A stretch of 64,000 nucleotides of DNA from Eledone cirrhosa. Taxonomy: Eukaryota. This document shows positions 1 through 64,000 of the stretch, piece by piece. Position 1 is the first letter of the stretch. Each line of letters begins with the position of its first letter. The stretch lies in assembly GCA_964016885.1 (NCBI GenBank), contig OZ024744.1, positions 118,048,001-118,112,000 of the forward strand. The letters run 5' to 3'. Below the pieces are notes generated by a model. It saw only the letters and a program-made list of their open reading frames with translations, searched no databases and was not told the DNA's origin. Made by a program: the position numbers and the translations under genes.

Positions 1-1760
1 ACATTTACATTACTCTATATATACTATTGTATTTTCACAGTAAAGACTTTACCTCACATAATATCTCACATAACATTTACATTACTCTATATATACTATT
101 GTATTTTCACAGTAAAGGCTTTACCTCACATAATATCTCACATAACATTTACATTACTCTATATATACTATTGTATTTTCACAGTAAAAGCTTTACCTCA
201 CATAATATCTCACATAACATTTACATTACACTATATATACTATTGTATTTTCACAGTAAAGACTTTACCTCACATAATATCTCACATAACATTTACATTA
301 CACTATATGTACTATTGTATTTTCACAGTAAAGACTTTACCTCACATAACATTTACATTACTCTATATATACTATTGTATTTTCACAGTAAAGGCTTTAC
401 CTCACATAATATCTCACATAACATTTACATTACTCTATATATACTATTGTATTTTCACAGTAAAAGCTTTACCTCACATAATACCTCACATAACATTTAC
501 ATTACACTATATATACTATTGTATTTTCACAGTAAAGGCTTTACCTCACATAATATCTCATAACATTTACATTACTCTATATATACTATTGTATTTTCAC
601 AGTAAAGGCTTTACCTCACATAATATCTCACATAACATTTACATTACTCTATATATACTATTGTATTTTCACAGTAAAAGCTTTACCTCACATAATACCT
701 CACATAACATTTACATTACACTATATATACTATTGTATTTTCACAGTAAAGGCTTTACCTCACATAATATCTCATAACATTTACATTACTCTATATATAC
801 TATTGTATTTTCACAGTAAAGGCTTTACCTCACATAATATCTCACATAACATTTACATTACTCTATATATACTATTGTATTTTCACAGTAAAAGCTTTAC
901 CTCACATAATACCTCACATAACATTTACATTACACTATATATACTATTGTATTTTCACAGTAAAGGCTTTACCTCACATAATATCTCATAACATTTACAT
1001 TACTCTATATATACTACTGTATTTTCACAGTAAAGGCTTTACCTCACACAATATCTCACATAACATTTACATTACTCTATATATACTGTTGTATTTTCAC
1101 AGTAAAGGCTTTACCTCACACAATATCTCACATAACATTTACATTACTCTATATATACTATTGTATTTTCACAGTAAAGGCTTTACCTCACATAATATCT
1201 TACATAACATTTACATTACTTTATATATACTATTGTATTTTCACAGTAAAGGCTTTACCTCACATAATATCTCACATAACATTTACATTACTCTATATAT
1301 ACTGTTGTATTTTCACAGTAAAGGCTTTACCTCACATAATATCTCACATAACATTTACATTACTCTATATATACTATTGTATTTTCACAGTAAAGGCTTT
1401 ACCTCACATAACAGCTCACATAACATTTACATTACTCTATATATACTATTGTATTTTCACAGTAAAGGCTTTACCTCACACAATATCTCACATAACATTT
1501 ACATTACTCTATATATACTGTTGTATTTTCACAGTAAAGGCTTTACCTCACATAATATCTTACATAACATTTACATTTCTCTATATATACTATTGTATTT
1601 TAACAGTAAAGGTTTCACCTCACATAATATTTACATTATTCTATATATACTATTGTATTTTCACAGTAAAGGCTTTACCTCACATAACAGCTCACATAAC
1701 ATTTACATTACTCTATATATACTGTTGTATTTTCACAGTAAAGGCCTTACCTCACACGAT
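1..1760 (+). repeat. 72-bp tandem array (60-bp deletion variants), cut by the window start
   Basis: Unit acatttacattactctatatatactattgtattttcacagtaaaggctttacctcacataatatctcacata; 24-aa periodicity in the ORF track. Confidence 0.97.
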
Positions 1761-1884
1761 ATCAAATCTATGAGATTTTGACGTTATTTATTTTGAAAAC
1801 AATACCTTAACATCAGTATGAGTGGTTGGTTATAGCCCAGTTTTAACAAAGTGTTAAGGACTCTGGCAATCAACATATGGTTTT

Positions 1885-4800
1885 ATGGTCAGTCCTACTG
1901 TGTGATAACTTGGACAGTGTTTACTGTAGCTTCAGGTTGACTAATATCTTGTGGTCAGTCCTACTGTGTGGTACCTTGGACAGGTTGACCAATGTCTTGT
2001 GGTCAGTCCTACTGTGTGGTACCTTGGACAGTGTCTCCTGTAGCCTTAGGTTGACCAATGTCTTGTCAGTCATACTGTAGCCTTAGGTTGACCAATGTCT
2101 TGTGGTCAGTACTACTGTGTGGTACCTTGCACAGTGTCTGCTGTAGCCTTAGGTTGACCAATGTCTTGTGGTCAGTCCTACTGTGTGGTACCTTGGACAG
2201 TGTCTACTGTAGCCTTAGGTTGACCAATGTCTTGTGGTCAGTCCTACTGTGTGGTACCTTCGACAGTGTCCACTGTAGCTTTAGGTTGACCAATGTCTTG
2301 TAGTCAGTCCTACTGTCTGGAACCTTGGACATTCTCTACTTTAGCCTTAGGTTGACCAATGTCTTGTGGTCAGTCCCACTGTGTGGTACCTTGGACAATG
2401 TCTACTGTAGCCTCAGGTTGACCAATGTCTTGTGGTCAGTCCTACTGTGTGGTACCTTGGAGAGTGTCCACTGTAGCCTCAGGTTGACCAATGTCTTGTG
2501 GTCAGACTACTGTGTGGTACCTTGGACAGTGTCTACTGTAGCCTTAGGTTGACCAATGTGTTGTGGTCAGTCCTACTGTGTGGTACCTTGGACAGTGTCT
2601 ACTGTAGTCTTAGGTTGACCAATGTCTTGTGGTCAGTCCTACTGTACCAAGGACTGTCTACTGTAGTCTTAGGTTGACCAACGTCTTGTGGTCAATCCTA
2701 CTGTGTGGTACCTTAGGCAGTGTCTACTGTAACCTTAGGTTGACCAATGTCTTCTAGTCAGTCTACTGTACCTTGGACAGTGTCTACTCTAGCCTTAGGT
2801 TGACCAACGTCTTGTGGTCAATCCTACTGTGTGGTTGCTAGGACAGTGTCCAATGTAGCCTTAGGTTAACCAATGTCTTGTGGTCAGCCCTACTGCGTGG
2901 TACCTTCGACAGTCTACTGTAGCCTTAGGTGACCAATGTCTTGTGGTCAGACCTACTGTGTGGTATGTTAGACAGTGTCTACTGTAGCCTTAGGTTGACC
3001 AATGTCTTGTGGTCAGTCCTAATGTGTGGTACCTTGGACAGTCTCTACTGTAACCTTAGGTTGACCAATGTCTTGTGGTCAGTCCTACTGTGTGGTATGT
3101 TAGACAGTGTCTACTGTAGCCTTAGGTTGACCAATGTCTTGTGGTCAGTCCTAATGTGTGGTACCTTGGACAGTCTCTACTGTAACCTTAGGTTGACCAA
3201 TGTCTTGTGGTCAGTCCTACTGTGTGGTATGTTAGACAGTGTCTACTGTAGCCTTAGGTTGACCAATGTCTTGTGGTCAGTCCTAATGTGTGGTACCTTG
3301 GACAGTCTCTACTGTAACCTTAGGTTGACCAATGTCTTGTGGTCAGTCCTACTGTGTGGTATGTTAGACAGTGTCTACTGTAGCCTTAGGTTAACCAATG
3401 TCTTGTGGTCAGCCCTACTGCGTGGTACCTTCGACAGTCTACTGTAGCCTTAGGTGACCAATGTCTTGTGGTCAGTCCTACTGTGTGGTATGTTAGACAG
3501 TGTCTACTGTAGCCTTAGGTTGACCAATGTGTTGTGGTCAGTCCTACTGCGTGGTACCTTCGACAGTCTACTGTAGCCTTAGGTGACCAATGTCTTGTGG
3601 TCAGTCCTACTGTGTGGTATGTTAGACAGTGTCTACTGTAGCCTTAGGTTGACCAATGTCTTGTGGTCAGTCCTAATGTGTGGTACCTTGGACAGTCTCT
3701 ACTGTAACCTTAGGTTGACCAATGTCTTGTGGTCAGTCCTACTGTGTGGTATGTTAGACAGTGTCTACTGTAGCCTTAGGTTGACCAATGTCTTGTGGTC
3801 AGTCCTAATGTGTGGTACCTTGGACAGTCTCTACTGTAACCTTAGGTTGACCAATGTCTTGTGGTCAGTCCTACTGTGTGGTATGTTAGACAGTGTCTAC
3901 TGTAGCCTTAGGTTGACCAATGTCTTGTGGTCAGTCCTACTGTGTGGTACCTTGGACAGTGTCTACTGTAGCCTTAGGTTGACCAATGTCTTGTGGTCAG
4001 TCCTAATGTGTTGTACCTTGGACAGTCTCTACTGTAACCTTAGGTTGACCAATGTCTTGTGGTCAGTCCTACTGTGTGGTATGTTAGACAGTGTCTACTG
4101 TAGCCTTAGGTTAACCAATGTCTTGTGGTCAGCCCTACTGCGTGGTACCTTCGACAGTCTACTGTAGCCTTAGGTGACCAATGTCTTGTGGTCAGTCCTA
4201 CTGTGTGGTATGTTAGACAGTGTCTACTGTAGCCTTAGGTTGACCAATGTGTTGTGGTCAGTCCTACTGTGTGGTACCTTCGATAGTCTCTACTGTAGCC
4301 TTAGTTTGACCGTCTTGTGGTCAGTCCTACTTTGTGGTACCTAGGAGAGTCTACTTTAGCATAAGGTTGACCAGTGCCCTGTGGTCAGTCCTACTGTGTG
4401 GTACCTTCGACAGTCTCTACTGTAGCCTTAGGTTGACCAATGTCTTGTGGTCAGTCCTACTGTGTGGTACCTTGGACAGTGTCTACTGTAGCCTTAGGTT
4501 GACCAATGTCTTGTGGTCAGTCCTACTGTGTGGTACCTTCGACAACTGTCTACTGTAGCCTTAGGTTGACCAATGTCTTGTGGTCAGTCCTACTGTGTGG
4601 TACCTTGGACAGTGTCTACTGTAGCCTTAGGTTGACCAACGTCTTGTGGTCAGTCCTACTGTGTGGTACCTTGGACAGTGTCTACTGTAGCCTTAGGTTG
4701 ACCAATGCCTTGTGGTCAGTCCTACTGTGTGGTACCTTGGACAGTGTCTACTGTAACCTTAGGTTGACCAATGTCTTGTGGTCAGTCCTACTGTGTGGTA

Positions 4801-7800
4801 TGTTAGACAGTTTCTACTGTAGCCTTAGGTTGACCAACGTCTTGTGGTCAATCCTACTGTGTGGTACCTTGGACAGTGTCTACTGTAGCCTTAGGTTGAC
4901 CAATGTGTTGTGGTCAGTCCTGTGTGCTACCTTGGACAGTGTCTACTGTAGCCTCAGGTTGACCAATGTCTTGTGGTCAGTCCTACTGTGTGGTATGTTA
5001 GACAGTGTCTACTGTAGCCTTAGGTTGACCAATGCCTTGTGGTCAGTCCTACTGTGTGGTATGTTAGACAGTGTCTACTGTAGCCTTAGGTTGACCAATG
5101 CCTTGTGGTCAGTCCTACTGTGTGGTATGTTAGACAGTGTCTACTGTAGCCTTAGGTTGACCAATGCCTTGTGGTCAGTCCTACTGTGTGGTACCTTGGA
5201 CAGTGTCTACTGTAACCTTAGGTTGACCAATGTCTTGTGGTCAGTCCTACTGTGTGGTATGTTAGACAGTTTCTACTGTAGCCTTAGGTTGACCAATGCC
5301 TTGTGGTCAATCCTACTGTGTGGTACCTTGGACAGTGTCTACTGTAGCCTTAGGTTGACCAATGTGTTGTGGTCAGTCCTGTGTGCTACCTTGGACAGTG
5401 TCTACTGTAGCCTCAGGTTGACCAATGTCTTGTGGTCAGTCCTACTGTGTGGTATGTTAGACAGTGTCTACTGTAGCCTCAGGTTGACCAATGTCTTGTG
5501 GTCAGTCCTACTGTGTGGTACCTTGGACTGTTTACTGTAGTCTTAGGTTGACCAATGTCTTGTGGTCAGTCCTACTGTGTGGTACCTTGGACAGTGTCTA
5601 CTGTAGCCTTAGGTTAACCAATGTCTTGTGGTCAGTCCTACTGTGTGGTACCTTGGACAGTGTCTACTGTAGCCTTAGGTTGACCAACGTCTTGTGGTCA
5701 GTCCTACTGTGTGGTACCTAGGAGAGTCTCTACTTTAGCATAAGGTTGACCAGTGCCCTGTGGTCAGTCCTACTGTGTGGTACCTTCGACAGTCTCTACT
5801 GTAGCATTAGGTTGACCAATGTATTGTGGTCAGTCCTACTGTGTGGTACCTTCGACAGTGTCTGCTCTAGCCTCAGGTTGACCAATGTCTTGTGGTCAGT
5901 CCTACTGTGTGGTACCTTGGACTGTCTACTGTAGCCTTAGGTTGACCAATGTCTTGTGGTCAGTCCTACTGTGTGGTATGTTAGACAGTGTCTACTGTAG
6001 CCTTAGGTTGACCAATGTCTTGTGGTCAGTCCTGTGTGGTACCTTGGACAGTATCTACTGTAGCCTTAGGTTGACCAATGTCTTGTGGTCAGTCCTGTGT
6101 GGTACCTTGGACAGTATCTACTGTAGCCTTAGGTTGACCAATGTCTTGTGGTCAGTCCTGTGTGGTACCTTGGACAGTATCTACTGTAGCCTTAGGTTGA
6201 CCAATGTCTTGTGGTCAGTCCTGTGTGGTACCTTGGACAGTATCTACTGTAGCCTTAGGTTGACCAATGTCTTGTGGTCAGTCCTGTGTGGTACCTTGGA
6301 CAGTATCTACTGTAGCCTTAGGTTGACCAATGTATTGTGGTCAGCCCTACTGTGTGGTACCTTTGATAGTCTCTACTGTAGCCTTAGGTTGACCAATGTC
6401 TTGTGGTCAGATTACTGTGTGGTACCTTAGACAATGTCTACTGTAGCCTTCGGTTGACCAATGTCTTGTGGTCAGTCCTACTTTGCGGTACCTAGGACAG
6501 TCTCTACTTTAGCATAAGGTTGACCAGTGTCCTGTGGTCAGTCCCACCATACCCTGGACAGTGTATACTGTAGTCTTAGGTTGACCAATGTCTTGTGGTC
6601 AGTCTGTGTGGTACCTTGGAGTCTACTGTAGTCTCAGGTTAAACAATGTCTTGCGGTCAGTCCTTCTGTACCTTGGACAGTGTCTACTGTAGCCTTAGGT
6701 TGACCAATGTCTTGTGGTCAGTCCTACTGTGTGGTACCTTGGACAGTGTAAACCCTAGTCTTACGTTGACCAATGTCATGTTAATCCTACTGTACCATGG
6801 ACAGTGTCTACTGTAACCTTAAGTAGACCAATGTCTTGTGGTCAATTGTACTGTACCTTGGACAGTGTATACTCTAGTCTTAGTTTGACCAATGTCTTGT
6901 GGTCAGTCCCACTGTGTGGTACCTTGGACAGTGTCTACTGTAGCCTTAGGTTAACCAATGTCTTGTGGTCAGACTACTGTGTGGTACCTTAGACACTGTC
7001 TACTGTAGCCTTAGGTTGACCAACGTCTTGTGGTCAGTACTACTGTGTGGTACCTTAGGCAGTGTCTACTGTAGCCTTAGGTTGACCAATGTATTGTGGT
7101 CAGTCCTACTGTGTGGTATGTTGGACAGTGTCTACTCTAGCCTCAGGTTGACCAACGTCTTGTGGTCAATCCTACTGTGTGGTACCTTGGACAGTGTCCA
7201 CTGTAGCCTTAGGTTGACCAATGTCTTGTGGTCAGTCCTACTGTGTGGTATGTTAGACTGTCTACTCTAGCGTCAGGTTGACCAACGTCTTGTGGTCAAT
7301 CCTACTGTGTGGTATCTTGGACAGTGTCTACTGTAGCCTTAGGTTGACCAATGTCTTGTGGTCAGTCCTACTTTGTGGTACCTAGGACACTCAACCTTAG
7401 CATAAGGTTGACCAGTGTCCTGTGGTCAGTCCCACCATACCCTGGACAGTGTATACTGTAGTCTTAGGTTGACCAATGTCTTGTGGTCAGTCTGTGTGGT
7501 ACCTTGGACAGTCTCTACTGTAGCCTTAGGTTGACCAATGTCTTGTGGCCAGTCCTGCTGTGTGGTATGTTAGACAGTGTCTACTGTAGCCTTAGGTTGA
7601 CCAATGTCTTGTGGTCAGTCCTACTGTGTGGAACCTTGGACATTCTCTACTTTAGCCTTAGGTTGACCAATGTCATGTGGTCCGTCCTACTGTACCTAGG
7701 ACAGTGTCTACTGTAGCCTTAGGTTGACCAATGTCTTGTGGTCAGTCCTACTGTGTGGTACCTAGGTCGTTGTCTACTATAGTCTTAGGTTGACCAATGT

Positions 7801-9293
7801 CTTGTGGTCAGTCCTACTGTGTGGTACCTTGGACAGTGTAAACCCTAGTCTTACGTTGACCAATGTAATGTTAATCCTACTGTACCATGGACTGTCTACT
7901 GTAGCCTTAAGTAGTTCAATGTCTTGTGGTCAATTGTACTGTACCTTGGACAGTGTATACCCTAGTCTTAGGTTGACCAATGTATTGCGGTCAGTCCTAC
8001 TGTGTGTACTGTAGCCTTAGGTTGACCAATGTCTTGTGGTCAGTCCTACTGAGTGGTACCTTGGACAATGTCTACTGTAGCCTATGGTTGACCAATGTCT
8101 TGTGGTCAGACTACTGTGTGGTACCTTAGACACTGTCTACTGTAGCCTTAGGTTGACCAATGTCTTGTGGTCAGTCCTACTGTACCAAGGACAGTGTCTA
8201 CTGTAGTCTTAGGTTGACCAATGTCTTGTGGTCAGTCCTACTGTACCAAGGACATTGTCTACTGTAGCCTTAGGTTGACCAACGTCTTGTGGTCAGTACT
8301 ACTGTGTGGTACCTTAGGCAGTGTCTACTGTAACCTTAGGTTGACCAATGTCTTGTGGTCAGTCTACTGTACCTTGGACAGTCTCTACTCTAGCCTCAGG
8401 TTGACCAACGTCTTGTGGTCAATCCTACTGTGTGGTACCTAGGACAGTGTCCACTGTAGCCTTAGGTTAACCAATGTCTTGTGGTCAGCCCTACTGTGTG
8501 GTACCTTCGACAGTCTCTACTGTAGCCTTAGGTTGACCAATGTCTTGTGGTCAGCCCTACTGTGTGGTATGTTAGACAGTGTCTACTGTAGCCTTAGGTT
8601 GACCAATGTCTTGTGGTCAATCCTACTGTGTGGTACCTTCGACAGTCTCTACTGTAGCCTTAGGTTAACAAATGTCTTGTGGTCAGTCCTACTGTGTGGT
8701 ACCTTGGACAGTGTCTACTGTAGTCTTAGGTTGACCAATGTCTTGTGGTCAGTCTGTGTGGTACCTTGGACAGTCTCTACTGTAGCCTCAGGTTGACCAA
8801 TGTCTTGAGGTCAGTCCTACTGTACCTAGGTCAGTATCTACTGTAGCCTTAGGTTGACCAATGTATTGTGGTCAGTCCTACTGTGTGGTTCCTTCGACAG
8901 TCTCAACTGTAGCCTTAGGTTGACCAATGTCATGTGGTCAGACTACTGTGTCGTACCTTGGACAGTGTCTACTGTAGCCTTCGGTTGACCAATGTCTTGT
9001 GGTCAGTCCTACTGTGTGGTACCTAGGACAGTCTCTACTTTAGCATAAGGTTGACCAGTGTCCTGTGGTCAGTCCCACCATACCCTGGACAGTGTATACT
9101 GTAGCCTTAGGTCGACCAATGTCTTGTGGCCAGTCCCACTGTGTGGTACCTTGGACAATGTCTACTGTAGCCTTAGGTTGACCAATGTCTTCTGGTCAGA
9201 TTACTGTGTGATACCTTAGACAGTGTCTGCTGTAGCCTAAGGTTGACCAATGTCTTGTGGTCAGTCCTACTTCTACCTTGGACAGTGTCTACA
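1885..9293. repeat. 66-bp tandem array (~110 units), probably SINE-derived
   Basis: Unit gtggtcagtcctactgtgtggtaccttggacagtgtctactgtagccttaggttgaccaatgtctt; 22-aa periodicity. Confidence 0.97.
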
Positions 9294-9413
9294 GTTGGCC
9301 AGTCACAAACTGCAGTAATCTGTTGTAATATTTAAGTGCCTATGCATATGCCCTGTGACTTACCAGTTTGACAAAAACTGAATTAGAAAACTACTTGTCT
9401 TGCTAGTTAAATA

Positions 9414-9848: not shown

Positions 9849-10369
9849 TGACTGACTGTATTTAGTGCTAGTACTAGTATCTGTTAACATTGACTGACTG
9901 TATCTGTTCATAAGTAAGTGAAATATTATTTAGTGTTATACAGTATAGATTTTAACTTAATCAAAAATCATATAAAATCTTAGATTCTGTTTGATCTTTT
10001 AGAACTGATTAAAGATAGTTATTTTAGAATTATTCAATTGGAGTATACTTGCCACAGCTGCTACTATCACCATTTATGTAGCTGATACCATATCAGTTGT
10101 CTATGTGAGTGTTCTGTGTTGTGTTTTGCAAAGGTGGACTATCTAAAAGTATATATATGTATATAAAAAAAAACATGTATTTAAATATTTAATATTTTAC
10201 TAAAATAATCCAAAGAAATTCAGATAAGAAAAATATAATTTTATTGAAAGAGAATCTTTTCATGAAAAAAAAGGGACAGCTGTGTGGTTAAAGATTCATT
10301 TCAGAACTACATGTTTCAGTCTCTACAATATTCTTCCTCCATTTATTCCTGAGAGGGGTGTGGGGCTAT

Positions 10370-10505
10370 AGTCCTCAAACACTCCTTCCAGCAGATCCTG
10401 TCAGGAAAAACCATCACCAACTGATCCAGCTGGATGCCCCTGTGAGACCAGCTAAGCTCATGGATGTTATCCAACCATCTTACTCAAGGTCTACCCATAA
10501 AATCT
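10370..10505 (-). mobile_element. RTE-type LINE 3' coding remnant adjoining the 64-bp array
   Basis: The reverse complement reads GRP*VRWLDNIHELSWSHRGIQLDQLVMV, homologous to the + strand copy at 45185-45360 (GRSRSRWLDKIHELGWSCLGIQLDQLEVV). Confidence 0.75.
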
Positions 10506-10509
10506 GTCC

Positions 10510-15553: not shown

Positions 15554-16525
15554 ACATATATTTGACACTTGATAGGTTTGCTGCCAAGTACAAATTAATG
15601 TGGCCTCTACAAATACGTGATAAAAATACATCTCATTTGTGTATATATATGTATATATATATATTTTTAGAACCATTAAGTGTGTGTGCGTATGAATGTG
15701 CATATGTATGTATGCTTTGTACATTCATCAAAGCAGAGAGTCATGAAATAAGCACTAGACTTGTGAAAGAAAAAAAGAAAAGATATTACTGGTGTCATGA
15801 TAGATCAAATGTAAGCAATGCTTCAGCATGGTCACAATCTGATGACTTAAAACTAGTGAAATAAAAGAACAAAAAAATTATAATAAAATAAAGTAAAATA
15901 AGATAAATTGTCTAATTCTTACCCATTCCTAACGCAATTTCGGTCATACTGCGACACAAGGAGTCAAGGCTGTCATTTATTTCTCGGTCCATTTCCATCA
16001 CTGCTAAACAAAACAAAACAAACAAACAAATAAAAATATATATATAAAATAAACGGTGAACGAGAAGAAAAATAGCCCCCCCCCCCCTCCTCTGATAATG
16101 GTTTTTGGAATATTAAATTGCTACAGTAACTTTCAGTCTTTCTTTTATTTTGCTTTCTCAATTCCCTTCTCACTTCCTTCGTAATGTAACCTACTTGTAC
16201 GGCTTTCTAGATAATTCACTGACAATACTCAGCCACTTATATGTTTGTTAATTCAACGAACCGGCTGTTGACAAAACAAGGTCCATTCCCAAAACAAAAC
16301 TAAATATTTACATGTATTCAACAAATTGGCAGCAAACTATGAGTTTAGTATGTCAGATAGAATTCTTTGCAGTATTCGTTCTGGCTCTCTGAGTCCAAGT
16401 CCCACTAAGCTCAACCTTAACTCTCACTCATTCAAGGTCGATAAAAAAAGTATCTGTCAAGTACTGGGGTTGATTTTTCTTTTATAACTTTCTCACTTCC
16501 TTTCTCTCATTCTCTCTCTGCACAC

Positions 16526-28040: not shown

Positions 28041-28100
28041 CCAATTATGCTTCCATACTATAACATTCCTTTCATGTATTTTGGAAACCTTATTTATTTA

Positions 28101-42020: not shown

Positions 42021-42023
42021 ATG

Positions 42024-45961: not shown

Positions 45962-46071
45962 CTGTTCTTCAAGCCATTGTTCAGAAAGATCCATCATATC
46001 TTCATAACTCAACAACTGAAATAAGTAGGAGTATTTGTGTAAGCGCAGAGTTTTCAACCAAATAGGTACAT
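45962..46071 (-). CDS. SAMD4: Smaug/SAMD4 exon, SAM domain N-terminal part
   Basis: Encodes (D)[36 protein letters not shown], the Smaug/Vts1 SAM signature WLKxLRLHKY. Canonical splice sites, phase 1 to 0. Confidence 0.96.
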
Positions 46072-46930: not shown

Positions 46931-46994
46931 CTAGAAAACAAAGGAAACAAAGATACTTAGAGGACCGAGAAATTTGAATAAATTAGCATTAATA

Positions 46995-47172: not shown

Positions 47173-47287
47173 TCTTTCTCACATGTTAATACAGCAACAA
47201 ATGATGTTAATAGTGGAGCTGGATGCTCTGTGAGTATAATAGCCAGAATAAGGATAGGGAGCTACTACCACTGTTGACCACTATGGT

Positions 47288-50200: not shown

Positions 50201-51130
50201 TGGTAGTGAAACATGGGCTGTGACTGTAGAAGACATGTGGTGCTACATGGTAGTGAAACATGGGTTGTGACTGTAGAAGACATGTGGTGCTACATGGTAG
50301 TGAAACATGGGCTGTGACTGTAGAAGATATGTGGTGCTACATGGGCTGTGACTGTAGAAGATATGTGGTGCTGCATGGTAGTGAAACATGGGATGTGACT
50401 GTAGAAGACATGTGGTGCTACATGGTAGTGAAGCATGGGATGTGACTGTAGAAGACATGTGGTGCTACATGGTAGTGAAACATGGGATGTGGCTGTAGAA
50501 GACATGTGGTGCTACATGATAGTGAAGCATGGGATGTGACTGTAGAAGACATGTGGTGCTACATGGTAGTGAAGCATGGGATGTGACTGTAGAAGACATG
50601 TGGTGCTACATGGTAGTGGAGCATGGGATGTGACTGTAGAAGACGTGGTGCTACATGGTAGTGAAGCATGGGATGTGACTGTAGAAGACATGTGGTGCTA
50701 CATGGTAGTGAAGCATGGGATGTGACTGTAGAAGACATGTGGTGCTACATGGTAGTGAAGCATGGGATGTGACTGTAGAAGACATGTGTAGACTGGAGAG
50801 AAATGCAGCAACTATGCTCCATTGGATGTGCAGTGTAAGTGTGAGAGAAAGGGGACTGCTTTGATATAGGCATGTTATACATATGGATAATGAGTGAAGA
50901 AGTGCCGTGAAATCCCAGTGGAAGGAAGCCACAGTAGAGGTAGACCAAGACAGACCTGGGTAGAGGTAGTGAGAGCTGATCTCAAATCACTAAGATTCAT
51001 AGAGGAGATGATTAAGGAACGCAAGGTGTGGAGAGATACTGTGCTGAGAAGGACCCATCTAACCTAATGCAAGCATGGGAAAATGTACGGAAAAACAGTG
51101 ATGATGATAATGTTGATGAAGATGATGAGG
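47288..51130 (+). mobile_element. RTE LINE 3' portion with an internal tandem expansion
   Basis: Left flank IEVVDSFCYLGDLINSGGGCSE. Right flank RLERNAATMLHWMCSVSVRE...GRPRQTWVEVVRADLKSL and a (GAT) tail. Collinear with the 39180-39800 copy. Confidence 0.9.
47410..50787 (+). repeat. 45/47-bp tandem array (~72 units) inside the RTE LINE
   Basis: Unit tgtggtgctacatggtagtgaaacatgggctgtgactgtagaagaca, encoding VLHGSETWAVTVED. Confidence 0.97.
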
Positions 51131-51460: not shown

Positions 51461-54400
51461 TAGACATGGGTATTGAATGTAGAGGATGTGTGAAGGGTAG
51501 ATTGTATGATGTCTGTGTTACATAGTAGTGAGACATGGGTAGTTAATGTAGAGGATGTGTGAAGGGTAGATTGTATGATGTCTGTGTACGTTACATGGTA
51601 GAGAGATATGGGTAGTTAATGTAGAGGATGTGTGAAGGGTAGATTGTATGATGTCTGTGTATGTTACATGGTGGTGAGCCATGGGTAGTTAATGTAGAGG
51701 ATGTGTGAAGGCTAGATTGTATGATGTCTGTGTTACATGGTAGTGTGACATGGGTAGTTAATGTAGAGGATGTGTGAAGGCTAGATTGTATGATGTCTGT
51801 GTTACATGGTAGTGTGACATGGGTAGTTAATGTAGAGGATGTGTGAAGGGTAGATTGTATGATGTCTGTGTATGTTACATGGTAGTGAGCCATGGGTAGT
51901 TAATGTAGAGGATGTGTGAAGGGTAGATTGTATGATGTCTGTGTTACATGGTAGTGAGACATGGGTAGTTAATGTAGAGGATGTGTGAAGGGTAGATTGT
52001 ATGATGTCTGTGTATGTTACATGGTAGTGAGCCATGGGTAGTTAATGTAGAGGATGTGTGAATGGTAGATTGTATGATATCTGTGTTACATGGTAGAAAG
52101 ACATGGGTATTGAATGTAGAGGATGGGTGAAGGGTAGATTGTATGATGTCTGTGTTACGAGTTAGTAAGACATGGTTAATGAACGTAGAGAATGTGTGAA
52201 GGGTAGATTGTACGATGTCTGTGTTACATGGTAGTGAGACATGGGTAGTTAATGTAGAGGATATGTGAAAGGTAGATTGTATGATGTCTGTGTATGTTAC
52301 ATGGTAGTGTGAAATGGATATTGAATGTAGAGGATGTGTGAAGGGTAAATTATATGATGTCTGTGTTACAAGGTAGTGAGACATGGGTAGTTAATGTAGA
52401 GGATATGTGAAGGGTAGATTGTATGATGTCTGTGTATGTTACATGGTAGTGTGACATGGGTATTGAATGTAGAGGATATGTGAAGGGTAGATTGTATGAT
52501 GTCTGTGTATGTTACATGGTAGTGAGACATGGGTATTGAATGTAGAGGATATGTGAAGGGTAGATTGCATGATGTCTGTGTATGTTACATGGTAGAGAGT
52601 AATGGGTAGTTAATGTAGAGGATGTGTGAAGGGTAGATTGAATGATGTCTGTGTATGTTACATGGTAGAGAGACATGGGTAGTTAATGTAGAGGATGTGT
52701 GAAGGGTAGATTGTATGATGTCTGTGTATATTACATGGTAGTGAGACATGGGTATTGAATGTAGAGGATATGTGAAGGGTAGATTGTATGATGTCTGTGT
52801 TACATGGTAGTGAGACATGGGTAGTTAATGTAGAGGATATGTGAAGGGTAGATTGTATGATGTCTGTGTTACATGGTAGTGAGACATGGGTAGTTAATGT
52901 ACAGGATGTGTGAAGGGTAGATTGTATGATGTCTGTGTATGTTACATGGCAGAGAGGCATGGGTAGGTAATGTAGAGGATGTGTGAAGGGTAGATTGTAT
53001 GATGTCTGTGTATGTTACATGGTAGAGAGACATGGGTAGTTAATGTAGAGGATGTGTGAAGATAGATTGTATGATGTCTGTGTATGTTACAGGGTAGAGA
53101 GACATGGGTAGTTAATGTAGAGGATGTGTGAAGGGTAGATTGTATGATGTCTGTGTATGTTACATGGTAGAGAGATATGGGTAGTTAATGTAGAGGATGT
53201 GTGAATGGTAGATTGTATGATGTCTGTGTATGTTACATGGTAGTGAGCCATGGGTATTGAAAGTAGAGGATGTGTGAAGGGTAGATTGTATGATATCTCT
53301 GTATGTTACATGGTAGAGAGACATGGGTAGTTAATGTAGAGGATGTGTGAATGGTAGCTTGTATGATGTCTGTGTTACATGGTAGTGAGACATGGGTAGT
53401 TAATATAGAGGATGTGTGAAGGGTAGATTGTATGATGTCTGTGTTACAAGGTAGTGAGACATGGATATTGAATGTAGAGGATGTGTGAAGGGTAGATTGT
53501 ATGATGTCTGTGTTACAAGGTAGTGAGACATGGATATTGAATGTAGAGGATGTGTGAATGGTAGATTGTATGATGTCTGTGTATGTTACATGGTAGTGAG
53601 ACATGGGTAGTTAATGTAGAGGATGTGTGAAGGGTAGATTGTATGATGTCTGTGTATGTTACATGGTAGAGAGTAATGGGTAGTTAATGTAGAGGATGTG
53701 TGAAGGGTAGATTGAATGATGTCTGTGTATGTTACATGGTAGAGAGACATGGGTAGTTAATGTAGAGGATGTGTGAAGGGTAGATTGTATGATGTCTGTG
53801 TATATTACATGGTAGTGAGACATGGGTATTGAATGTAGAGGATATGTGAAGGGTAGATTGTATGATGTCTGTGTTACATGGTAGTGAGACATGGGTAGTT
53901 AATGTACAGGATGTGTGAAGGGTAGATTGTATGATGTCTGTGTATGTTACATGGCAGAGAGGCATGGGTAGGTAATGTAGAGGATGTGTGAATGGTAGAT
54001 TGTATGATGTCTGTGTATGTTACATGGTAGAGAGACATGGGTAGTTAATGTAGAGGATGTGTGAAGATAGATTGTATGATGTCTGTGTATGTTACATGGT
54101 AGAGAGACATGGGTAGTTAATGTAGAGGATGTGTGAAGGGTAGATTGTATGATGTCTGTGTATGTTACATGGTAGAGAGATATGGGTAGTTAATGTAGAG
54201 GATGTGTGAATGGTAGATTGTATGATGTCTGTGTATGTTACATGGTTGTGAGCCATAGGTATTGAAAGTAGAGGATGTGTGAAGGGTAGATTGTATGATA
54301 TCTCTGTATGTTACATGGTAGAGAGACATGGGTAGTTAATGTAGAGGATGTGTGAATGGTAGCTTGTACGATGTCTGTGTTACATGGTAGTGAGACATGG

Positions 54401-57400
54401 GTAGTTAATGTAGAGGATATGTGAAAGGTAGATTGTATGATGTCTGTGTATGTTACATGGTAGTGTGAAATGGATATTGAATGTAGAGGATGTGTGAAGG
54501 GTAGATTATATGATGTCTGTGTTACAAGGTAGTGAGACATGGGTAGTTAATGTAGAGGATATGTGAAGGGTAGATTGTATGATGTCTGTGTATGTTACAT
54601 GGTAGTGTGACATGGGTATTGAATGTAGAGGATATGTGAAGGGTAGATTGTATGATGTCTGTGTATGTTACATGGTAGTGAGACATGGGTATTGAATGTA
54701 GAGGATATGTGAAGGGTAGATTGCATGATGTCTGTGTATGTTACATGGTAGAGAGTAATGGGTAGTTAATGTAGAGGATGTGTGAAGGGTAGATTGAATG
54801 ATGTCTGTGTATGTTACATGGTAGAGAGACATGGGTAGTTAATGTAGAGGATGTGTGAAGGGTAGATTGTATGATGTCTGTGTATATTACATGGTAGTGA
54901 GACATGGGTATTGAATGTAGAGGATATGTGAAGGGTAGATTGTATGATGTCTGTGTTACATGGTAGTGAGACATGGGTAGTTAATGTAGAGGATATGTGA
55001 AGGGTAGATTGTATGATGTCTGTGTATGTTACATGGTAGTGTGACATGGGTATTGAATGTAGAGGATATGTGAAGGGTAGATTGTATGATGTCTGTGTAT
55101 GTTACATGGTAGTGAGACATGGGTATTGAATGTAGAGGATATGTGAAGGGTAGATTGTATGATGTCTGTGTATGTTACATGGTAGAGAGTAATGGGTAGT
55201 TAATGTAGAGGATGTGTGAAGGGTAGATTGAATGATGTCTGTGTATGTTACATGGTAGAGAGACATGGGTAGTTAATGTAGAGGATGTGTGAAGGGTAGA
55301 TTGTATGATGTCTGTGTATATTACATGGTAGTGAGACATGGGTATTGAATGTAGAGGATATGTGAAGGGTAGATTGTATGATGTCTGTGTTACATGGTAG
55401 TGAGACATGGGTAGTTAATGTACAGGATGTGTGAAGGGTAGATTGTATGATGTCTGTGTATGTTACATGGCAGAGAGGCATGGGTAGGTAATGTAGAGGA
55501 TGTGTGAAGGGTAGATTGTATGATGTCTGTGTATGTTACATGGTAGTGAGACATGGGTATTGAATGTAGAGGATGTGTGAAGATAGATTGTATGATGTCT
55601 GTGTATGTTACATGGTAGAGAGACATGGGTAGTTAATGTAGAGGATGTGTGAATGGTAGATTGTATGATGTCTGTGTATGTTACATGGTAGAGAGACATG
55701 GGTAGTTAATGTAGAGGATGTGTGAAGATAGATTGTATGATGTCTGTGTATGTTACAGGGTAGAGAGACATGGGTAGTTAATGTAGAGGATGTGTGAAGG
55801 GTAGATTGTATGATGTCTGTGTATGTTACATGGTAGAGAGATATGGGTAGTTAATGTAGAGGATGTGTGAATGGTAGATTGTATGATGTCTGTGTATGTT
55901 ACATGGTAGTGAGCCATGGGTATTGAAAGTAGAGGATGTGTGAAGGGTAGATTGTATGATATCTCTGTATGTTACATGGTAGAGAGACATGGGTAGTTAA
56001 TGTAGAGGATGTGTGAATGGTAGCTTGTATGATGTCTGTGTTACATGGTAGTGAGACATGGGTAGTTAATATAGAGGATGTGTGAAGGGTAGATTGTATG
56101 ATGTCTGTGTTACAAGGTAGTGAGACATGGATATTGAATGTAGAGGATGTGTGAAGGGTAGATTGTATGATGTCTGTGTTACAAGGTAGTGAGACATGGA
56201 TATTGAATGTAGAGGATGTGTGAATGGTAGATTGTATGATGTCTGTGTATGTTACATGGTAGTGAGACATGGGTAGTTAATGTAGAGGATGTGTGAAGGG
56301 TAGATTGTATGATGTCTGTGTATGTTACATGGTAGAGAGTAATGGGTAGTTAATGTAGAGGATGTGTGAAGGGTAGATTGAATGATGTCTGTGTATGTTA
56401 CATGGTAGAGAGACATGGGTAGTTAATGTAGAGGATGTGTGAAGGGTAGATTGTATGATGTCTGTGTATATTACATGGTAGTGAGACATGGGTATTGAAT
56501 GTAGAGGATATGTGAAGGGTAGATTGTATGATGTCTGTGTTACATGGTAGTGAGACATGGGTAGTTAATGTACAGGATGTGTGAAGGGTAGATTGTATGA
56601 TGTCTGTGTATGTTACATGGCAGAGAGGCATGGGTAGGTAATGTAGAGGATGTGTGAATGGTAGATTGTATGATGTCTGTGTATGTTACATGGTAGAGAG
56701 ACATGGGTAGTTAATGTAGAGGATGTGTGAAGATAGATTGTATGATGTCTGTGTATGTTACATGGTAGAGAGACATGGGTAGTTAATGTAGAGGATGTGT
56801 GAAGGGTAGATTGTATGATGTCTGTGTATGTTACATGGTAGAGAGATATGGGTAGTTAATGTAGAGGATGTGTGAATGGTAGATTGTATGATGTCTGTGT
56901 ATGTTACATGGTTGTGAGCCATAGGTATTGAAAGTAGAGGATGTGTGAAGGGTAGATTGTATGATATCTCTGTATGTTACATGGTAGAGAGACATGGGTA
57001 GTTAATGTAGAGGATGTGTGAATGGTAGCTTGTATGATGTCTGTGTTACATGGTAGTGAGACATGGGTAGTTAATATAGAGGATGTGTGAAGCGTAGATT
57101 GTATGATGTCTGTGTTACAAGGTAGTGAGACATGGATATTGAATGTAGAGGATGTGTGAAGGGTAGATTGTATGATGTCTGTGTTACAAGGTAGTGAGAC
57201 ATGGATATTGAATGTAGAGGATGTGTGAATGGTAGATTGTATGATGTCTGTGTATGTTACATGGTAGTGAGACATGGGTAGTTAATGTAGAGGATGTGTG
57301 AAAGGTAGATTTGATGATGTCTATGTATGTTCCATGGTAGTGAGACATGGGTAATTAATGTAGAGGATGTGTGAAGGGTAGATTGTATGATGTCTGTGTA

Positions 57401-60400
57401 TGTTACATGGTAGTGTGACATGGGTATTGAATGTAGAGGATATGTGAAGGGTAGATTGTATGATGTCTGTGTATGTTACATGGTAGTGAGACATGGGTAT
57501 TGAATGTAGAGGATATGTGAAGGGTAGATTGTATGATGTCTGTGTATGTTACATGGTAGAGAGACATGGGTAGTTAATGTAGAGGATGTGTGATGGGTAG
57601 ATTGTATGATGTCTGTGTTACATGGTAGTGAGACATGGGTAGTTAATGTAGAGGATGTGTGAAGGCTAGATTGTATGATGTCTGTGTTACATGGTAGTGT
57701 GACATGGGTAGTTAATGTAGAGGATGTGTGAAGGGTAGATTGTATGATGTCTGTATGTTACATGGTAGTGAGACATGGGTAGTTAATGTAGAGGATGTGT
57801 GAAGGGTAGATTGTATGATGTCTGTGTATGTTACATGGTAGTGAGCCATGTGTAGTTAATGTAGAGGATGTGTGAATGGTAGATTGTATGATATCTGTGT
57901 TACATGGTAGAAAGACATGGGTATTGAATGTAGAGGATGGGTGAAGGGTAGATTGTATGATGTCTGTGTTACGAGTTAGTAAGACATGGTTAATGAACGT
58001 AGAGAATGTGTGAAGGGTAGATTGTACGATGTCTGTGTTACATGGTAGTGAGACATGGGTAGTTAATGTAGAGGATATGTGAAAGGTAGATTGTATGATG
58101 TCTGTGTATGTTACATGGTAGTGTGAAATGGATATTGAATGTAGAGGATATGTGAAGGGTAGATTGTATGATGTCTGTGTTACAAGGTAGTGAGACATGG
58201 GTAGTTAATGTAGAGGATATGTGAAGGGTAGATTGTATGATGTCTGTGTATATTACATGGTAGTGAGACATGGGTATTGAATGTAGAGGATATGTGAAGG
58301 GTAGATTGTATGATGTCTGTGTTACATGGTAGTGAGACATGGGTAGTTAATGTAGAGGATATGTGAAGGGTAGATTGTATGATGTCTGTGTATGTTACAT
58401 GGTAGTGTGACATGGGTATTGAATGTAGAGGATATGTGAAGGGTAGATTGTATGATGTCTGTGTATGTTACATGGTAGTGAGACATGGGTATTGAATGTA
58501 GAGGATATGTGAAGGGTAGATTGTATGATGTCTGTGTATGTTACATGGTAGAGAGTAATGGGTAGTTAATGTAGAGGATGTGTGAAGGGTAGATTGAATG
58601 ATGTCTGTGTATGTTACATGGTAGAGAGACATGGGTAGTTAATGTAGAGGATGTGTGAAGGGTAGATTGTATGATGTCTGTGTATATTACATGGTAGTGA
58701 GACATGGGTATTGAATGTAGAGGATATGTGAAGGGTAGATTGTATGATGTCTGTGTTACATGGTAGTGAGACATGGGTAGTTAATGTACAGGATGTGTGA
58801 AGGGTAGATTGTATGATGTCTGTGTATGTTACATGGCAGAGAGGCATGGGTAGGTAATGTAGAGGATGTGTGAAGGGTAGATTGTATGATGTCTGTGTAT
58901 GTTACATGGTAGTGAGACATGGGTATTGAATGTAGAGGATGTGTGAAGATAGATTGTATGATGTCTGTGTATGTTACATGGTAGAGAGACATGGGTAGTT
59001 AATGTAGAGGATGTGTGAATGGTAGATTGTATGATGTCTGTGTATGTTACATGGTAGAGAGACATGGGTAGTTAATGTAGAGGATGTGTGAAGATAGATT
59101 GTATGATGTCTGTGTATGTTACAGGGTAGAGAGACATGGGTAGTTAATGTAGAGGATGTGTGAAGGGTAGATTGTATGATGTCTGTGTATGTTACATGGT
59201 AGAGAGATATGGGTAGTTAATGTAGAGGATGTGTGAATGGTAGATTGTATGATGTCTGTGTATGTTACATGGTAGTGAGCCATGGGTATTGAAAGTAGAG
59301 GATGTGTGAAGGGTAGATTGTATGATATCTCTGTATGTTACATGGTAGAGAGACATGGGTAGTTAATGTAGAGGATGTGTGAATGGTAGCTTGTATGATG
59401 TCTGTGTTACATGGTAGTGAGACATGGGTAGTTAATATAGAGGATGTGTGAAGGGTAGATTGTATGATGTCTGTGTTACAAGGTAGTGAGACATGGATAT
59501 TGAATGTAGAGGATGTGTGAAGGGTAGATTGTATGATGTCTGTGTTACAAGGTAGTGAGACATGGATATTGAATGTAGAGGATGTGTGAATGGTAGATTG
59601 TATGATGTCTGTGTATGTTACATGGTAGAGAGTAATGGGTAGTTAATGTAGAGGATGTGTGAAGGGTAGATTGAATGATGTCTGTGTATGTTACATGGTA
59701 GAGAGACATGGGTAGTTAATGTAGAGGATGTGTGAAGGGTAGATTGTATGATGTCTGTGTATATTACATGGTAGTGAGACATGGGTATTGAATGTAGAGG
59801 ATATGTGAAGGGTAGATTGTATGATGTCTGTGTTACATGGTAGTGAGACATGGGTAGTTAATGTACAGGATGTGTGAAGGGTAGATTGTATGATGTCTGT
59901 GTATGTTACATGGCAGAGAGGCATGGGTAGGTAATGTAGAGGATGTGTGAATGGTAGATTGTATGATGTCTGTGTATGTTACATGGTAGAGAGACATGGG
60001 TAGTTAATGTAGAGGATGTGTGAAGATAGATTGTATGATGTCTGTGTATGTTACATGGTAGAGAGACATGGGTAGTTAATGTAGAGGATGTGTGAAGGGT
60101 AGATTGTATGATGTCTGTGTATGTTACATGGTAGAGAGATATGGGTAGTTAATGTAGAGGATGTGTGAATGGTAGATTGTATGATGTCTGTGTATGTTAC
60201 ATGGTTGTGAGCCATAGGTATTGAAAGTAGAGGATGTGTGAAGGGTAGATTGTATGATATCTCTGTATGTTACATGGTAGAGAGACATGGGTAGTTAATG
60301 TAGAGGATGTGTGAATGGTAGCTTGTATGATGTCTGTGTTACATGGTAGTGAGACATGGGTAGTTAATATAGAGGATGTGTGAAGCGTAGATTGTATGAT

Positions 60401-63400
60401 GTCTGTGTTACAAGGTAGTGAGACATGGATATTGAATGTAGAGGATGTGTGAAGGGTAGATTGTATGATGTCTGTGTTACAAGGTAGTGAGACATGGATA
60501 TTGAATGTAGAGGATGTGTGAATGGTAGATTGTATGATGTCTGTGTATGTTACATGGTAGTGAGACATGGGTAGTTAATGTAGAGGATGTGTGAAAGGTA
60601 GATTTGATGATGTCTATGTATGTTCCATGGTAGTGAGACATGGGTAATTAATGTAGAGGATGTGTGAAGGGTAGATTGTATGATGTCTGTGTATGTTACA
60701 TGGTAGTGTGACATGGGTATTGAATGTAGAGGATATGTGAAGGGTAGATTGTATGATGTCTGTGTATGTTACATGGTAGTGAGACATGGGTATTGAATGT
60801 AGAGGATATGTGAAGGGTAGATTGTATGATGTCTGTGTATGTTACATGGTAGAGAGACATGGGTAGTTAATGTAGAGGATGTGTGATGGGTAGATTGTAT
60901 GATGTCTGTGTTACATGGTAGTGAGACATGGGTAGTTAATGTAGAGGATGTGTGAAGGCTAGATTGTATGATGTCTGTGTTACATGGTAGTGTGACATGG
61001 GTAGTTAATGTAGAGGATGTGTGAAGGGTAGATTGTATGATGTCTGTATGTTACATGGTAGTGAGACATGGGTAGTTAATGTAGAGGATGTGTGAAGGGT
61101 AGATTGTATGATGTCTGTGTATGTTACATGGTAGTGAGCCATGTGTAGTTAATGTAGAGGATGTGTGAATGGTAGATTGTATGATATCTGTGTTACATGG
61201 TAGAAAGACATGGGTATTGAATGTAGAGGATGGGTGAAGGGTAGATTGTATGATGTCTGTGTTACGAGTTAGTAAGACATGGTTAATGAACGTAGAGAAT
61301 GTGTGAAGGGTAGATTGTACGATGTCTGTGTTACATGGTAGTGAGACATGGGTAGTTAATGTAGAGGATATGTGAAAGGTAGATTGTATGATGTCTGTGT
61401 ATGTTACATGGTAGTGTGAAATGGATATTGAATGTAGAGGATGTGTGAAGGGTAGATTATATGATGTCTGTGTTACAAGGTAGTGAGACATGGGTAGTTA
61501 ATGTAGAGGATATGTGAAGGGTAGATTGTATGATGTCTGTGTATGTTACATGGTAGTGTGACATGGGTATTGAATGTAGAGGATATGTGAAGGGTAGATT
61601 GTATGATGTCTGTGTATGTTACATGGTAGAGAGTAATGGGTAGTTAATGTAGAGGATGTGTGAAGGGTAGATTGTATGATGTCTGTGTATGTTACATGGT
61701 AGTGAGACATGGGTATTGAATGTAGAGGATATGTGAAGGGTAGATTGTATGATGTCTGTGTATGTTACATGGTAGAGAGTAATGGGTAGTTAATGTAGAG
61801 GATGTGTGAAGGGTAGATTGTATGATGTCTGTGTATGTTACATGGTAGTGTGACATGGGTATTGAATGTAGAGGATATGTGAAGGGTAGATTGTATGATG
61901 TCTGTGTATGTTACATGGTAGAGAGTAATGGGTAGTTAATGTAGAGGATGTGTGAAGGGTAGATTGTATGATGTCTGTGTATGTTACATGGTAGTGAGAC
62001 ATGGGTATTGAATGTAGAGGATATGTGAAGGGTAGATTGTATGATGTCTGTGTTACATGGTAGTGAGACATGGGTAGTTAATGTAGAGGATATGTGAAGG
62101 GTAGATTGTATGATGTCTGTGTATGTTACATGGTAGAGAGTAATGGGTAGTTAATGTAGAGGATGTGTGAAGGGTAGATTGAATGATGTCTGTGTATGTT
62201 ACATGGTAGAGAGACATGGGTAGTTAATGTAGAGGATGTGTGAAGGGTAGATTGTATGATGTCTGTGTATATTACATGGTAGTGAGACATGGGTATTGAA
62301 TGTAGAGGATATGTGAAGGGTAGATTGTATGATGTCTGTGTTACATGGTAGTGAGACATGGGTAGTTAATGTACAGGATGTGTGAAGGGTAGATTGTATG
62401 ATGTCTGTGTATGTTACATGGCAGAGAGGCATGGGTAGGTAATGTAGAGGATGTGTGAAGGGTAGATTGTATGATGTCTGTGTATGTTACATGGTAGTGA
62501 GACATGGGTATTGAATGTAGAGGATGTGTGAAGATAGATTGTATGATGTCTGTGTATGTTACATGGTAGAGAGACATGGGTAGTTAATGTAGAGGATGTG
62601 TGAATGGTAGATTGTATGATGTCTGTGTATGTTACATGGTAGTGAGACATGGGTAGGTAATGTAGAGGATGTGTGAATGGTAGATTGTATGATGTCTGTG
62701 TATGTTACATGGTAGAGAGACATGGGTAGTTAATGTAGAGGATGTGTGAAGATAGATTGTATGATGTCTGTGTATGTTACATGGTAGAGAGACATGGGTA
62801 GTTAATGTAGAGGATGTGTGAAGGGTAGATTGTATGATGTCTGTGTATGTTACATGGTAGAGAGATATGGGTAGTTAATGTAGAGGATGTGTGAATGGTA
62901 GATTGTATGATGTCTGTGTATGTTACATGGTAGTGAGCCATGGGTATTGAAAGTAGAGGATGTGTGAAGGGTAGATTGTATGATATCTCTGTATGTTACA
63001 TGGTAGAGAGACATGGGTAGTTAATGTAGAGGATGTGTGAATGGTAGCTTGTATGATGTCTGTGTTACATGGTAGTGAGACATGGGTAGTTAATATAGAG
63101 GATGTGTGAAGGGTAGATTGTATGATGTCTGTGTTACAAGGTAGTGAGACATGGATATTGAATGTAGAGGATGTGTGAAGGGTAGATTGTATGATGTCTG
63201 TGTTACAAGGTAGTGAGACATGGATATTGAATGTAGAGGATGTGTGAATGGTAGATTGTATGATGTCTGTGTATGTTACATGGTAGTGAGACATGGGTAG
63301 TTAATGTAGAGGATGTGTGAAGGGTAGATTGTATGATGTCTGTGTATGTTACATGGTAGAGAGTAATGGGTAGTTAATGTAGAGGATGTGTGAAGGGTAG

Positions 63401-64000
63401 ATTGAATGATGTCTGTGTATGTTACATGGTAGAGAGACATGGGTAGTTAATGTAGAGGATGTGTGAAGGGTAGATTGTATGATGTCTGTGTATATTACAT
63501 GGTAGTGAGACATGGGTATTGAATGTAGAGGATATGTGAAGGGTAGATTGTATGATGTCTGTGTTACATGGTAGTGAGACATGGGTAGTTAATGTACAGG
63601 ATGTGTGAAGGGTAGATTGTATGATGTCTGTGTATGTTACATGGCAGAGAGGCATGGGTAGGTAATGTAGAGGATGTGTGAATGGTAGATTGTATGATGT
63701 CTGTGTATGTTACATGGTAGAGAGACATGGGTAGTTAATGTAGAGGATGTGTGAAGATAGATTGTATGATGTCTGTGTATGTTACATGGTAGAGAGACAT
63801 GGGTAGTTAATGTAGAGGATGTGTGAATGGTAGCTTGTATGATGTCTGTGTTACATGGTAGTGAGACATGGGTAGTTAATATAGAGGATGTGTGAAGCGT
63901 AGATTGTATGATGTCTGTGTTACAAGGTAGTGAGACATGGATATTGAATGTAGAGGATGTGTGAAGGGTAGATTGTATGATGTCTGTGTTACAAGGTAGT
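51461..64000 (+). repeat. 69/73-bp tandem array (>170 units), RTE-derived, runs off the window end
   Basis: Unit catggtagtgagacatgggtagttaatgtagaggatgtgtgaagggtagattgtatgatgtctgtg(tatg)tta, encoding KGRLYDVCV and MLHGSETWVVNVEDV. Confidence 0.97.

Follow-up and report, generated by a model that had tools for sequence, protein, structure and literature searches.

Tandem arrays at the Smaug locus of Eledone cirrhosa as probable members of multi-locus satellite families with transposon-derived units

The stretch analysed here (the window) comprises 64,000 nt of chromosome C28 of the octopus Eledone cirrhosa (C28:118,048,001-118,112,000, accession OZ024744.1; genome 3.0 Gb), and it carries ten minus-strand coding exons of the gene Smaug together with tandem arrays that occupy 62-63% of its length according to Tandem Repeats Finder (TRF). 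An earlier note on the window had described about eight unrelated arrays with units of 72, 66, 80, 64, 100, 48, 47 and 73 bp covering about 60% of it, and had attributed them to a process that picks short segments of transposable elements (TEs) and amplifies them in place. All eight arrays, with 3 to ~172 copies each, and the array content were recovered by TRF, together with a ninth, 61-bp array (41604-41781) absent from that list. The eight arrays belong to multi-locus satellite families, each of which probably arose once or rarely, was probably copied to new sites by DNA repair and then grew locally. The window is better read as a site where many mobile satellite families have gathered than as a nursery. 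A broader proposal, which we regard as evenly balanced between right and wrong, is that a TE-born repeat has thousands of potential landing sites in the dead copies of its parent and recolonises them by homology-guided repair (satellite homing), that this graveyard selects which satellites become genome-wide, and that the process is a main route of intron inflation in octopus.

Age of the units and of their host relics

The genome was searched with multimers of each unit and the best ~40 candidates per search were scored, so the locations and identities given here describe top hits. All eight units form arrays of the same period elsewhere, at 87-99% identity. Arrays of the 72-bp unit were found on many chromosomes (1,975 candidates, with 97-99% identity among those scored), those of the 47-bp unit genome-wide (87-94%), those of the 48-bp unit on C28 and on C25, where the matches spread across ~290 kb, and those of the 73-, 80-, 66-, 64- and 100-bp units mostly on C28 at 107-135 Mb, including sister arrays of the 66-bp unit at C28:117.13 and 111.71 Mb. 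Five families are spread mainly along distal C28, and the 47-, 48- and 72-bp families are spread between chromosomes. The 100-bp unit differs from its parent by a deletion of ~35 bp that is present in all 19 arrays compared, and the junction of this deletion has 274 exact matches; among the 100 listed, apparently ordered by contig, 98 lie on C28 from 116.2 Mb and the remaining two at one C17 locus, and the parent itself is dispersed. On the four largest chromosomes 9/35 arrays of the 47-bp unit were located versus 31/39 of its relics (p=6e-6). The 80-bp array at 9414-9847 is 96-97.5% identical over its full length to arrays 0.7-11 Mb away and is likely a recent insertion. When the best donor was sought, several arrays tied within 1-2%, so that no donor can be named. 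Near-identical dispersed arrays, the outcome that the earlier note had itself set against its proposal, were largely what was found for all eight units, and amplification in place of the window's arrays is not supported, given this recurrence and units younger than their host relics.

This difference in age was measured on matched pairs of loci by comparing the identity of their homologous flanks (74-84%) with that of single interior units (90-96%). For the 72-bp family the flank value was 0.84 versus 0.96 for the unit (flank lower in 232/232 pairs), for the 64-bp family 0.84 versus 0.94 (55/57 pairs), for the 47-bp family 0.79 and 0.83 for the two flanks versus 0.905 (175/177 and 195/208 pairs), and for the 100-bp family 0.74 versus 0.94 (13/14 pairs). 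Unit-unit identity between loci exceeded relic-relic identity in 6/6 families tested (0.91-0.96 vs 0.77-0.89), the locus consensuses are 96-100% alike in six families, and arrays that had not been chosen by unit search are equally close to the family consensus. Under independent birth the units should be as diverged as the relics, and under co-transposition the flanks should be no older than the units; neither expectation holds. Young units in older homologous hosts, with hybrid units at the edges, are what was observed; private variants of the local relic within the units, with unit identity equal to relic identity, were not.

Diagnostic bases point in the same direction. Derived bases at positions 5 and 10 of the 47-bp unit are present in 23/23 arrays and in 2/21 array-free relics, and the first unit of the array is mostly parental at position 5 (derived in 7/22). 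At position 13 of the 100-bp unit the derived base was found in 19/19 arrays and 1/34 relics. When relics were chosen by their flank alone, one of 29 carried a 47-bp array and one of 29 a 64-bp array, the latter ~60 kb from the window; no complete unit was detected in 7 relics of the 47-bp set and 12 of the 64-bp set, and none of the 29 in either set held a parental-type two-copy seed of 47- or 64-bp period. Arrays of just 3-5 copies already bear the derived unit, including the 35-bp deletion. Array-bearing hosts do not resemble one another more than they resemble array-free hosts: the respective identities were 0.838 and 0.842 for the 72-bp family, 0.819 and 0.846 for the 64-bp family and 0.816 and 0.833 for the 47-bp family. 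On trees of the flanks the array-bearing hosts are not clustered for the 72-bp family (9 changes versus 9.9 when shuffled, 192/500 shuffles as low) or for the 64-bp family (90/500 shuffles as low).

Dispersed parent-like copies exist for all eight units. Those of the 47-, 48-, 64-, 72-, 73-, 80- and 100-bp units were found at 8-65 sampled loci each, and those of the 66-bp unit at two loci, both outside the window and detected only under a looser search. Derivation of the units from segments of long and short interspersed elements (LINEs and SINEs) and of MITEs (miniature inverted-repeat transposable elements), as claimed earlier, is supported, the assignment of the parents to these classes being provisional, and the dispersed single copies reported in the window for the 48-, 73-, 80- and 100-bp units were confirmed at 72-84% identity. 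Of the parents said to flank arrays in the window, both sides were seen for the 47-bp array and the 5' side for the 64- and 72-bp arrays. The arrays are not all unrelated: the 47- and 73-bp units (82.5% identity over 40 bp) overlap one segment of a non-LTR (long terminal repeat) retrotransposon relic, where the 73-mer has a 10-bp deletion, and the 48- and 61-bp units (92% over 24 bp) overlap one other element. A single copy of the shared 47/73 segment lies inside the relic at 39183-40420, which we take to belong to the RTE clade; the parent of the 66-bp unit is presumably a SINE, and the SINE and piggyBac-like labels of parent elements are likewise our assumption. No tRNA was found in the window by ARAGORN, so the SINE heads are putative. 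The 48-bp dimer at 17712-17817 lies in a composite element that has the same flanks at several further loci, and it is a transposon-borne seed.

For the junctions, 100 stretches around arrays were taken, in which 158 arrays of nine families were found, duplicates included; duplicate rows from overlapping stretches, up to five listed ids, were removed before counting, and the flank and relic tests did not include 48-bp arrays whose identity to the family consensus fell below 90-93%. Three types of junction were distinguished, with the parent element on both sides (19/23 loci of the 47-bp family), on one side (typical of the 64-bp family) or on neither (the 80-bp family and many 100- and 48-bp arrays). 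A parent flank was scored at 42/46 ends for the 47-bp family, 19/34 for the 64-bp, 13/40 for the 100-bp, 11/26 for the 48-bp and 1/18 for the 80-bp family, and random DNA was scored as parental in 0-9% of trials. Loci lacking any parent flank numbered 7/8 of those fully scored for the 80-bp family and 9/19 for the 100-bp family. Terminal units run in register into the parent in the 47-bp family, partly so in the 64-, 72-, 100- and 48-bp families, and not in the 80-, 73- and 66-bp families; at several 100-bp loci the undeleted parent was seen by eye to resume at the 3' end. The 3' terminal repeat of the MITE ends the 72-bp array at 24/36 loci and the 5' repeat lies within 200 bp at 15/34, and the 3' flank of this family scores low only because the element ends ~9 bp past the array. 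In the window neither side of the 48-, 80- and 66-bp arrays scores as parental, the 100-bp array has one ambiguous end, and the 73-bp array has no parent flank on its in-window side. Reference relics numbered 5-6 for the 80-bp unit and two for the 66-bp unit, so the latter result is weak, and by eye the 5' side of the 66-bp array resembles a SINE head. Five of the eight families have no clear collinear flank in the window.

Satellite families were also observed to abut, or nearly so, in sampled stretches L055 (4087-8349, 64- and 48-bp), L083 (4333-5520, 100- and 64-bp) and L070 (4430-5311, 64- and 100-bp), which looks like the insertion of one array into, or next to, a second one. In stretch L066 (1581-7801) an inverted five-copy block is joined head to head to one end of a 48-bp array. 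Contigs of short-read run X7, labelled as another organism, cross the junction of the 80-bp unit (9417-9476) at high depth, and this satellite may predate the species. The right flank of the window's 80-bp array (9848-9910) contains two short local duplications, possibly a scar of templated repair.

Proposed course and competing explanations

For each unit a single-copy parent-like segment exists, and several units are bounded there by short direct repeats. A founder array would have formed by microhomology-bounded duplication of almost any DNA. In the core step, a break in or beside an old parent relic may have been repaired off an existing array, through synthesis-dependent strand annealing with a template switch or through one-crossover integration of an excised circle, so that derived units would come to lie between the two diverged halves of that relic. 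Events with a single homologous end would leave a parent flank on one side, and microhomology or end joining would leave none. Unequal exchange and multi-kb block duplication would then extend arrays to tens of kb and inflate introns, and such duplications are present within the 64-bp array at 10509-15550 (1,795 bp at 99.4% identity) and within the 73-bp array (several kb at 99.1-99.6%).

Abundant relics would act as landing pads in this way, which would explain why the families that spread are TE-derived. TE origin was examined in a sample of 113 array families (278 arrays, 1.53 Mb). A dispersed homolog at at least two loci was found for 46 of them (41%), compared with 41-46% for length-matched random non-array DNA, and for 9/28 families in evenly placed blocks, compared with 29-38%. 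A preference for TE segments as the rule of array birth, which the earlier note had put forward, therefore finds no support, TE origin being at background level. Among 63 complex families, dispersed homologs were present for 7/7 found at three or more loci, 2/4 at two and 18/52 at one (p=0.006 for at least three loci versus one). Given background-level TE origin overall and 7/7 among the spreaders, array birth seems indifferent to TE origin and spread seems to favour it.

Birth in place does occur. At 2/29 relics, private arrays of other periods (~125 bp in stretch L165 and ~100 bp in L166) arose from the parent segment of the 64-bp unit; for the window's own arrays such a local origin is not supported. 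These births, the in-register flanks of the 47-, 64- and 72-bp arrays, the short direct repeats and the loci with parent on both sides would all fit an origin of each array at a fixed microhomology in its relic. If that origin was followed by homogenisation through gene conversion (concerted evolution), the likeness between loci would be accounted for as well, and we consider this unlikely, with a small but real chance of being correct. It cannot explain the flank-less 80- and 100-bp arrays, it is at odds with the absence of parental two-copy seeds from the flank-chosen relics and with the derived unit of 3-5-copy arrays, and it still requires transfer between loci. Independent birth of each array from its own relic with no exchange between loci, which was the model of the earlier note, is very improbable given the excess of unit-unit over relic-relic identity, the shared diagnostic states and the families that lack a collinear flank in the window.

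A slim chance is left to a transposon subfamily that carried an array or seed and moved it, as described for Xstir and miDNA4 of Xenopus, with copy number changing locally afterwards. The termination of 72-bp arrays in the element's terminal repeat, the transposon-borne 48-bp dimer and the clustering of 47-bp hosts on their tree (below) are in its favour. The hosts are nevertheless older than the units and, for the 72- and 64-bp families, mixed with array-free hosts; retrotransposition would scatter arrays, yet five families are mainly confined to distal C28, and the 47-bp arrays avoid the places that hold most relics. Over-expansion of repeats during assembly can hardly be entertained: it might be suspected from the near-identical internal duplications of the 73-bp array, but many distinct unit variants occur per array (e.g. 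106/151, 72/97 and 43/174), no N is present, and short-read contigs, possibly of the same sample, contain 80- and 64-bp units joined in tandem, the exact assembled lengths being provisional.

Several observations weigh against copying between loci by repair. Most loci are best matches to the window's units, which inflates unit identity, and the DNA looked at totals ~1.7 Mb of the 3.0-Gb genome. The 47-bp hosts cluster on their flank tree (6 changes versus 13.5 when shuffled, 0/500 shuffles as low), their array-free set having been picked by likeness to one flank and being biased for that reason. In the same family 15/89 edge variants are fixed within arrays and the locus consensuses differ (0.957), so local history matters there; the edge-variant test lends weak support, since such variants may also be later mutations. 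The seed dimer of the 48-bp unit travels within a mobile element. Isolation by distance on C28 was not significant for the 64-, 100- and 80-bp families (Mantel p=0.26, 0.14 and 0.50), and when the searched families are removed from the sample the excess of dispersed parents falls to 4/5 versus 18/52 (p=0.067). No empty allele or orthologous pre-insertion site was seen in the short-read contigs, in which the left flank of the 80-bp array is barely covered and satellite contigs swamped the junctions, so insertion is deduced from comparison of paralogs. Sequences that differ by 10-20% are normally kept from recombining. Birth in place with homogenisation between loci looks identical at loci whose two flanks are parental.

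The Smaug locus and features of the window

The Smaug coding span measures 249,464 bp, of which 192,412 bp (77%) are arrays; at this conserved regulator it is tandem arrays, rather than TE insertions, that make up most of the span. Past the right end of the window, two more stretches of coding sequence follow at distances of 83 and 195 kb. The 73-bp array, part of which had been seen before, extends in full over 93,179 bp (~1,309 copies, no N) in a 99.6-kb intron that is 97.6% array, and the next intron is 72% array. The earlier view of arrays as the main component of intron length accordingly holds at Smaug. Not all of them are intronic, since the last coding exon lies at ~10093-10142 and the left 72-, 66- and 80-bp arrays are downstream of the stop codon. 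The upstream intron holds a 67-kb array of a 53-bp unit (~1,290 copies, C28:118,229,204-118,296,471), a 5.9-kb array of a 47-bp unit unlike the 47-mer of the window and a 7.2-kb array of a 50-bp unit, and no dispersed homolog of these three was found in the sampled DNA. Of evenly placed 10-kb blocks, the 20 on C28 contained 27% array (median 6%, with at least 67% in five of them) and 19 located elsewhere contained 8% (median 3%), so the window is array-rich but not unique on C28. This chromosome is 136.5 Mb long, follows contigs of 22-24 Mb in the numbering and has ~3x the array content of the other DNA sampled. The features of the window are as follows.

1..1763, minus: 72-bp array in MITE relic; array and element extend ~1.6 kb left of the window
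1764..1848, minus: host MITE, 5' body; identity to the second host (24498-24581) only 80%, against 98.6-100% for the unit consensuses
1880..9295, plus: 66-bp array downstream of the Smaug stop, with ~112 copies of a unit that resembles a SINE head/body segment
9414..9847, plus: 80-bp array, 5.4 copies, without parent flanks
10093..10142, minus: last Smaug coding exon; matched over 10053-10143 by a run X6 contig that ends at the splice site
10350..10508, plus: relic of the parent element, flanking the 64-bp array on its 5' side; genome-wide family at 84-89% identity
10509..15550, plus: 64-bp array, 79 copies, in the last Smaug intron; flanked by the parent at its 5' end alone
15924..16004, minus: Smaug exon
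17712..17817, minus: 48-bp segment, parental-type dimer of 2.2 copies, within the dispersed composite element
18304..18387, minus: Smaug exon
20606..20836, minus: Smaug exon
24440..24581, plus: 5' body of the second MITE relic, host of a 72-bp array
24582..25428, plus: 72-bp array, left part
25429..27140, plus: Helitron-like insertion in the 72-bp array; 5' TC, 3' hairpin and CTAG; Pif1 2B domain (E=6e-16)
27146..27515, plus: 72-bp array, right part
28100..28413, plus: 100-bp array, 3 copies (28100-28395) and an 18-bp tail after an internal jump; SINE-like unit; without parental 5' flank
28898..28987, minus: Smaug exon
30477..30569, minus: Smaug exon
31066..38518, plus: 48-bp array, 155 copies of the derived unit, without parent flanks
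38653..38856, minus: Smaug exon
39183..40420, minus: relic of a non-LTR retrotransposon with a PHD finger and an RVT_1 match that falls short of the curated cut-off (E=1.5e-5)
40714..40809, minus: Smaug exon, SAM domain region
41604..41781, plus: 61-bp array, 3 copies; overlaps the parent segment of the 48-bp unit
45962..46072, minus: Smaug exon, SAM domain region
46686..46931, minus: Smaug exon, 93% identical to Smaug of Octopus sinensis and 84% to that of Argonauta
47260..47411, plus: LINE relic flanking the 47-bp array on its 5' side
47412..50788, plus: 47-bp array, 72 copies, in register within the LINE relic
50789..51110, plus: LINE relic flanking the 47-bp array on its 3' side
51462..64000, plus: 73-bp array, first 12.5 kb of 93 kb; fills most of the 99.6-kb Smaug intron

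Within the 72-bp array the Helitron-like element is inserted between an A and a T, and it is therefore younger than the arrival of that array. Two other elements were noted in the window. At 22288-24011 a large inverted repeat with arms of ~700 bp at 85% identity encloses AT-rich short repeats and resembles a foldback element, and at 42553-44900 (minus strand) lies a broken, GC-rich non-LTR retrotransposon with RVT_1 matches, of a family different from that of the 47/73 parent.

Comparison with known systems

Satellite birth and carriage by elements are treated in two reviews (PMC9659126 and PMC12628747). In the portions compared of the related satellite and minisatellite literature, re-entry into old parent relics is not stated; no report of cephalopod satellites re-entering TE relics was found in the literature searched (mostly open-access papers, without supplements), and the accessible portion of a paper on Octopus vulgaris repeats (PMC13282606) contains 0 occurrences of the word 'satellite'. 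Human TE-derived minisatellites (PMC3389668) resemble the present arrays in having units from TE sub-segments, hotspots within elements and short flanking direct repeats; they are explained by locus-by-locus births or co-transposition, and re-entry into old relics is not stated in the part of that paper compared. Xstir and miDNA4 of Xenopus (described in PMC12628747) share with the 72-bp family an array enclosed in a short element that bears terminal inverted repeats, and MITEs bearing tandem repeats, including DTC84 of Donax (PMC3879986), likewise occur as coexisting single- and multi-unit copies. The array-bearing copies of the 72-bp host differ from these in not being a young subfamily, and carriage by the element therefore does not account for their spread.

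A closer likeness in mode of spread is offered by the Rsp-like satellite, which invaded 1.688 clusters on the X chromosome of the Drosophila simulans clade and for which interlocus conversion, template switching or extrachromosomal circular DNA were proposed (PMC7403614). There, too, a satellite spreads along one chromosome by means of an abundant homologous landing pad. In Drosophila this role falls to a different satellite, linked via a hybrid repeat, whereas here the parent transposon with its dispersed copies would take it, a pattern seen in at least five families. Squamate SINE-derived satellites (sSats) share with the present arrays their many loci of tandem TE sub-segments, terminal units that continue into the parent and high homogeneity between loci, and local duplication with concerted evolution was given as the explanation (PMC10702118). 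The subtelomeric bias of the sSats may have a counterpart in the 47-bp arrays, which among the top hits are depleted on the four largest chromosomes relative to relics. The parents of the sSats are SINEs only, whereas a LINE open reading frame, SINEs and MITEs are the parents here, where in addition host age was tested against unit age, many arrays are flank-less and spread is regional on one chromosome arm.

In-register arrays in relics are usually read as having been born there, and the comparison of host age with unit age shows that this reading can fail. If the reading favoured here is true, widespread satellites would be enriched in TE-derived units without any bias at birth, and the arrival of satellites at new loci, a long-open question, becomes testable on many families in one genome. 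The same comparison is a cheap test for published cases, the squamate sSats among them.

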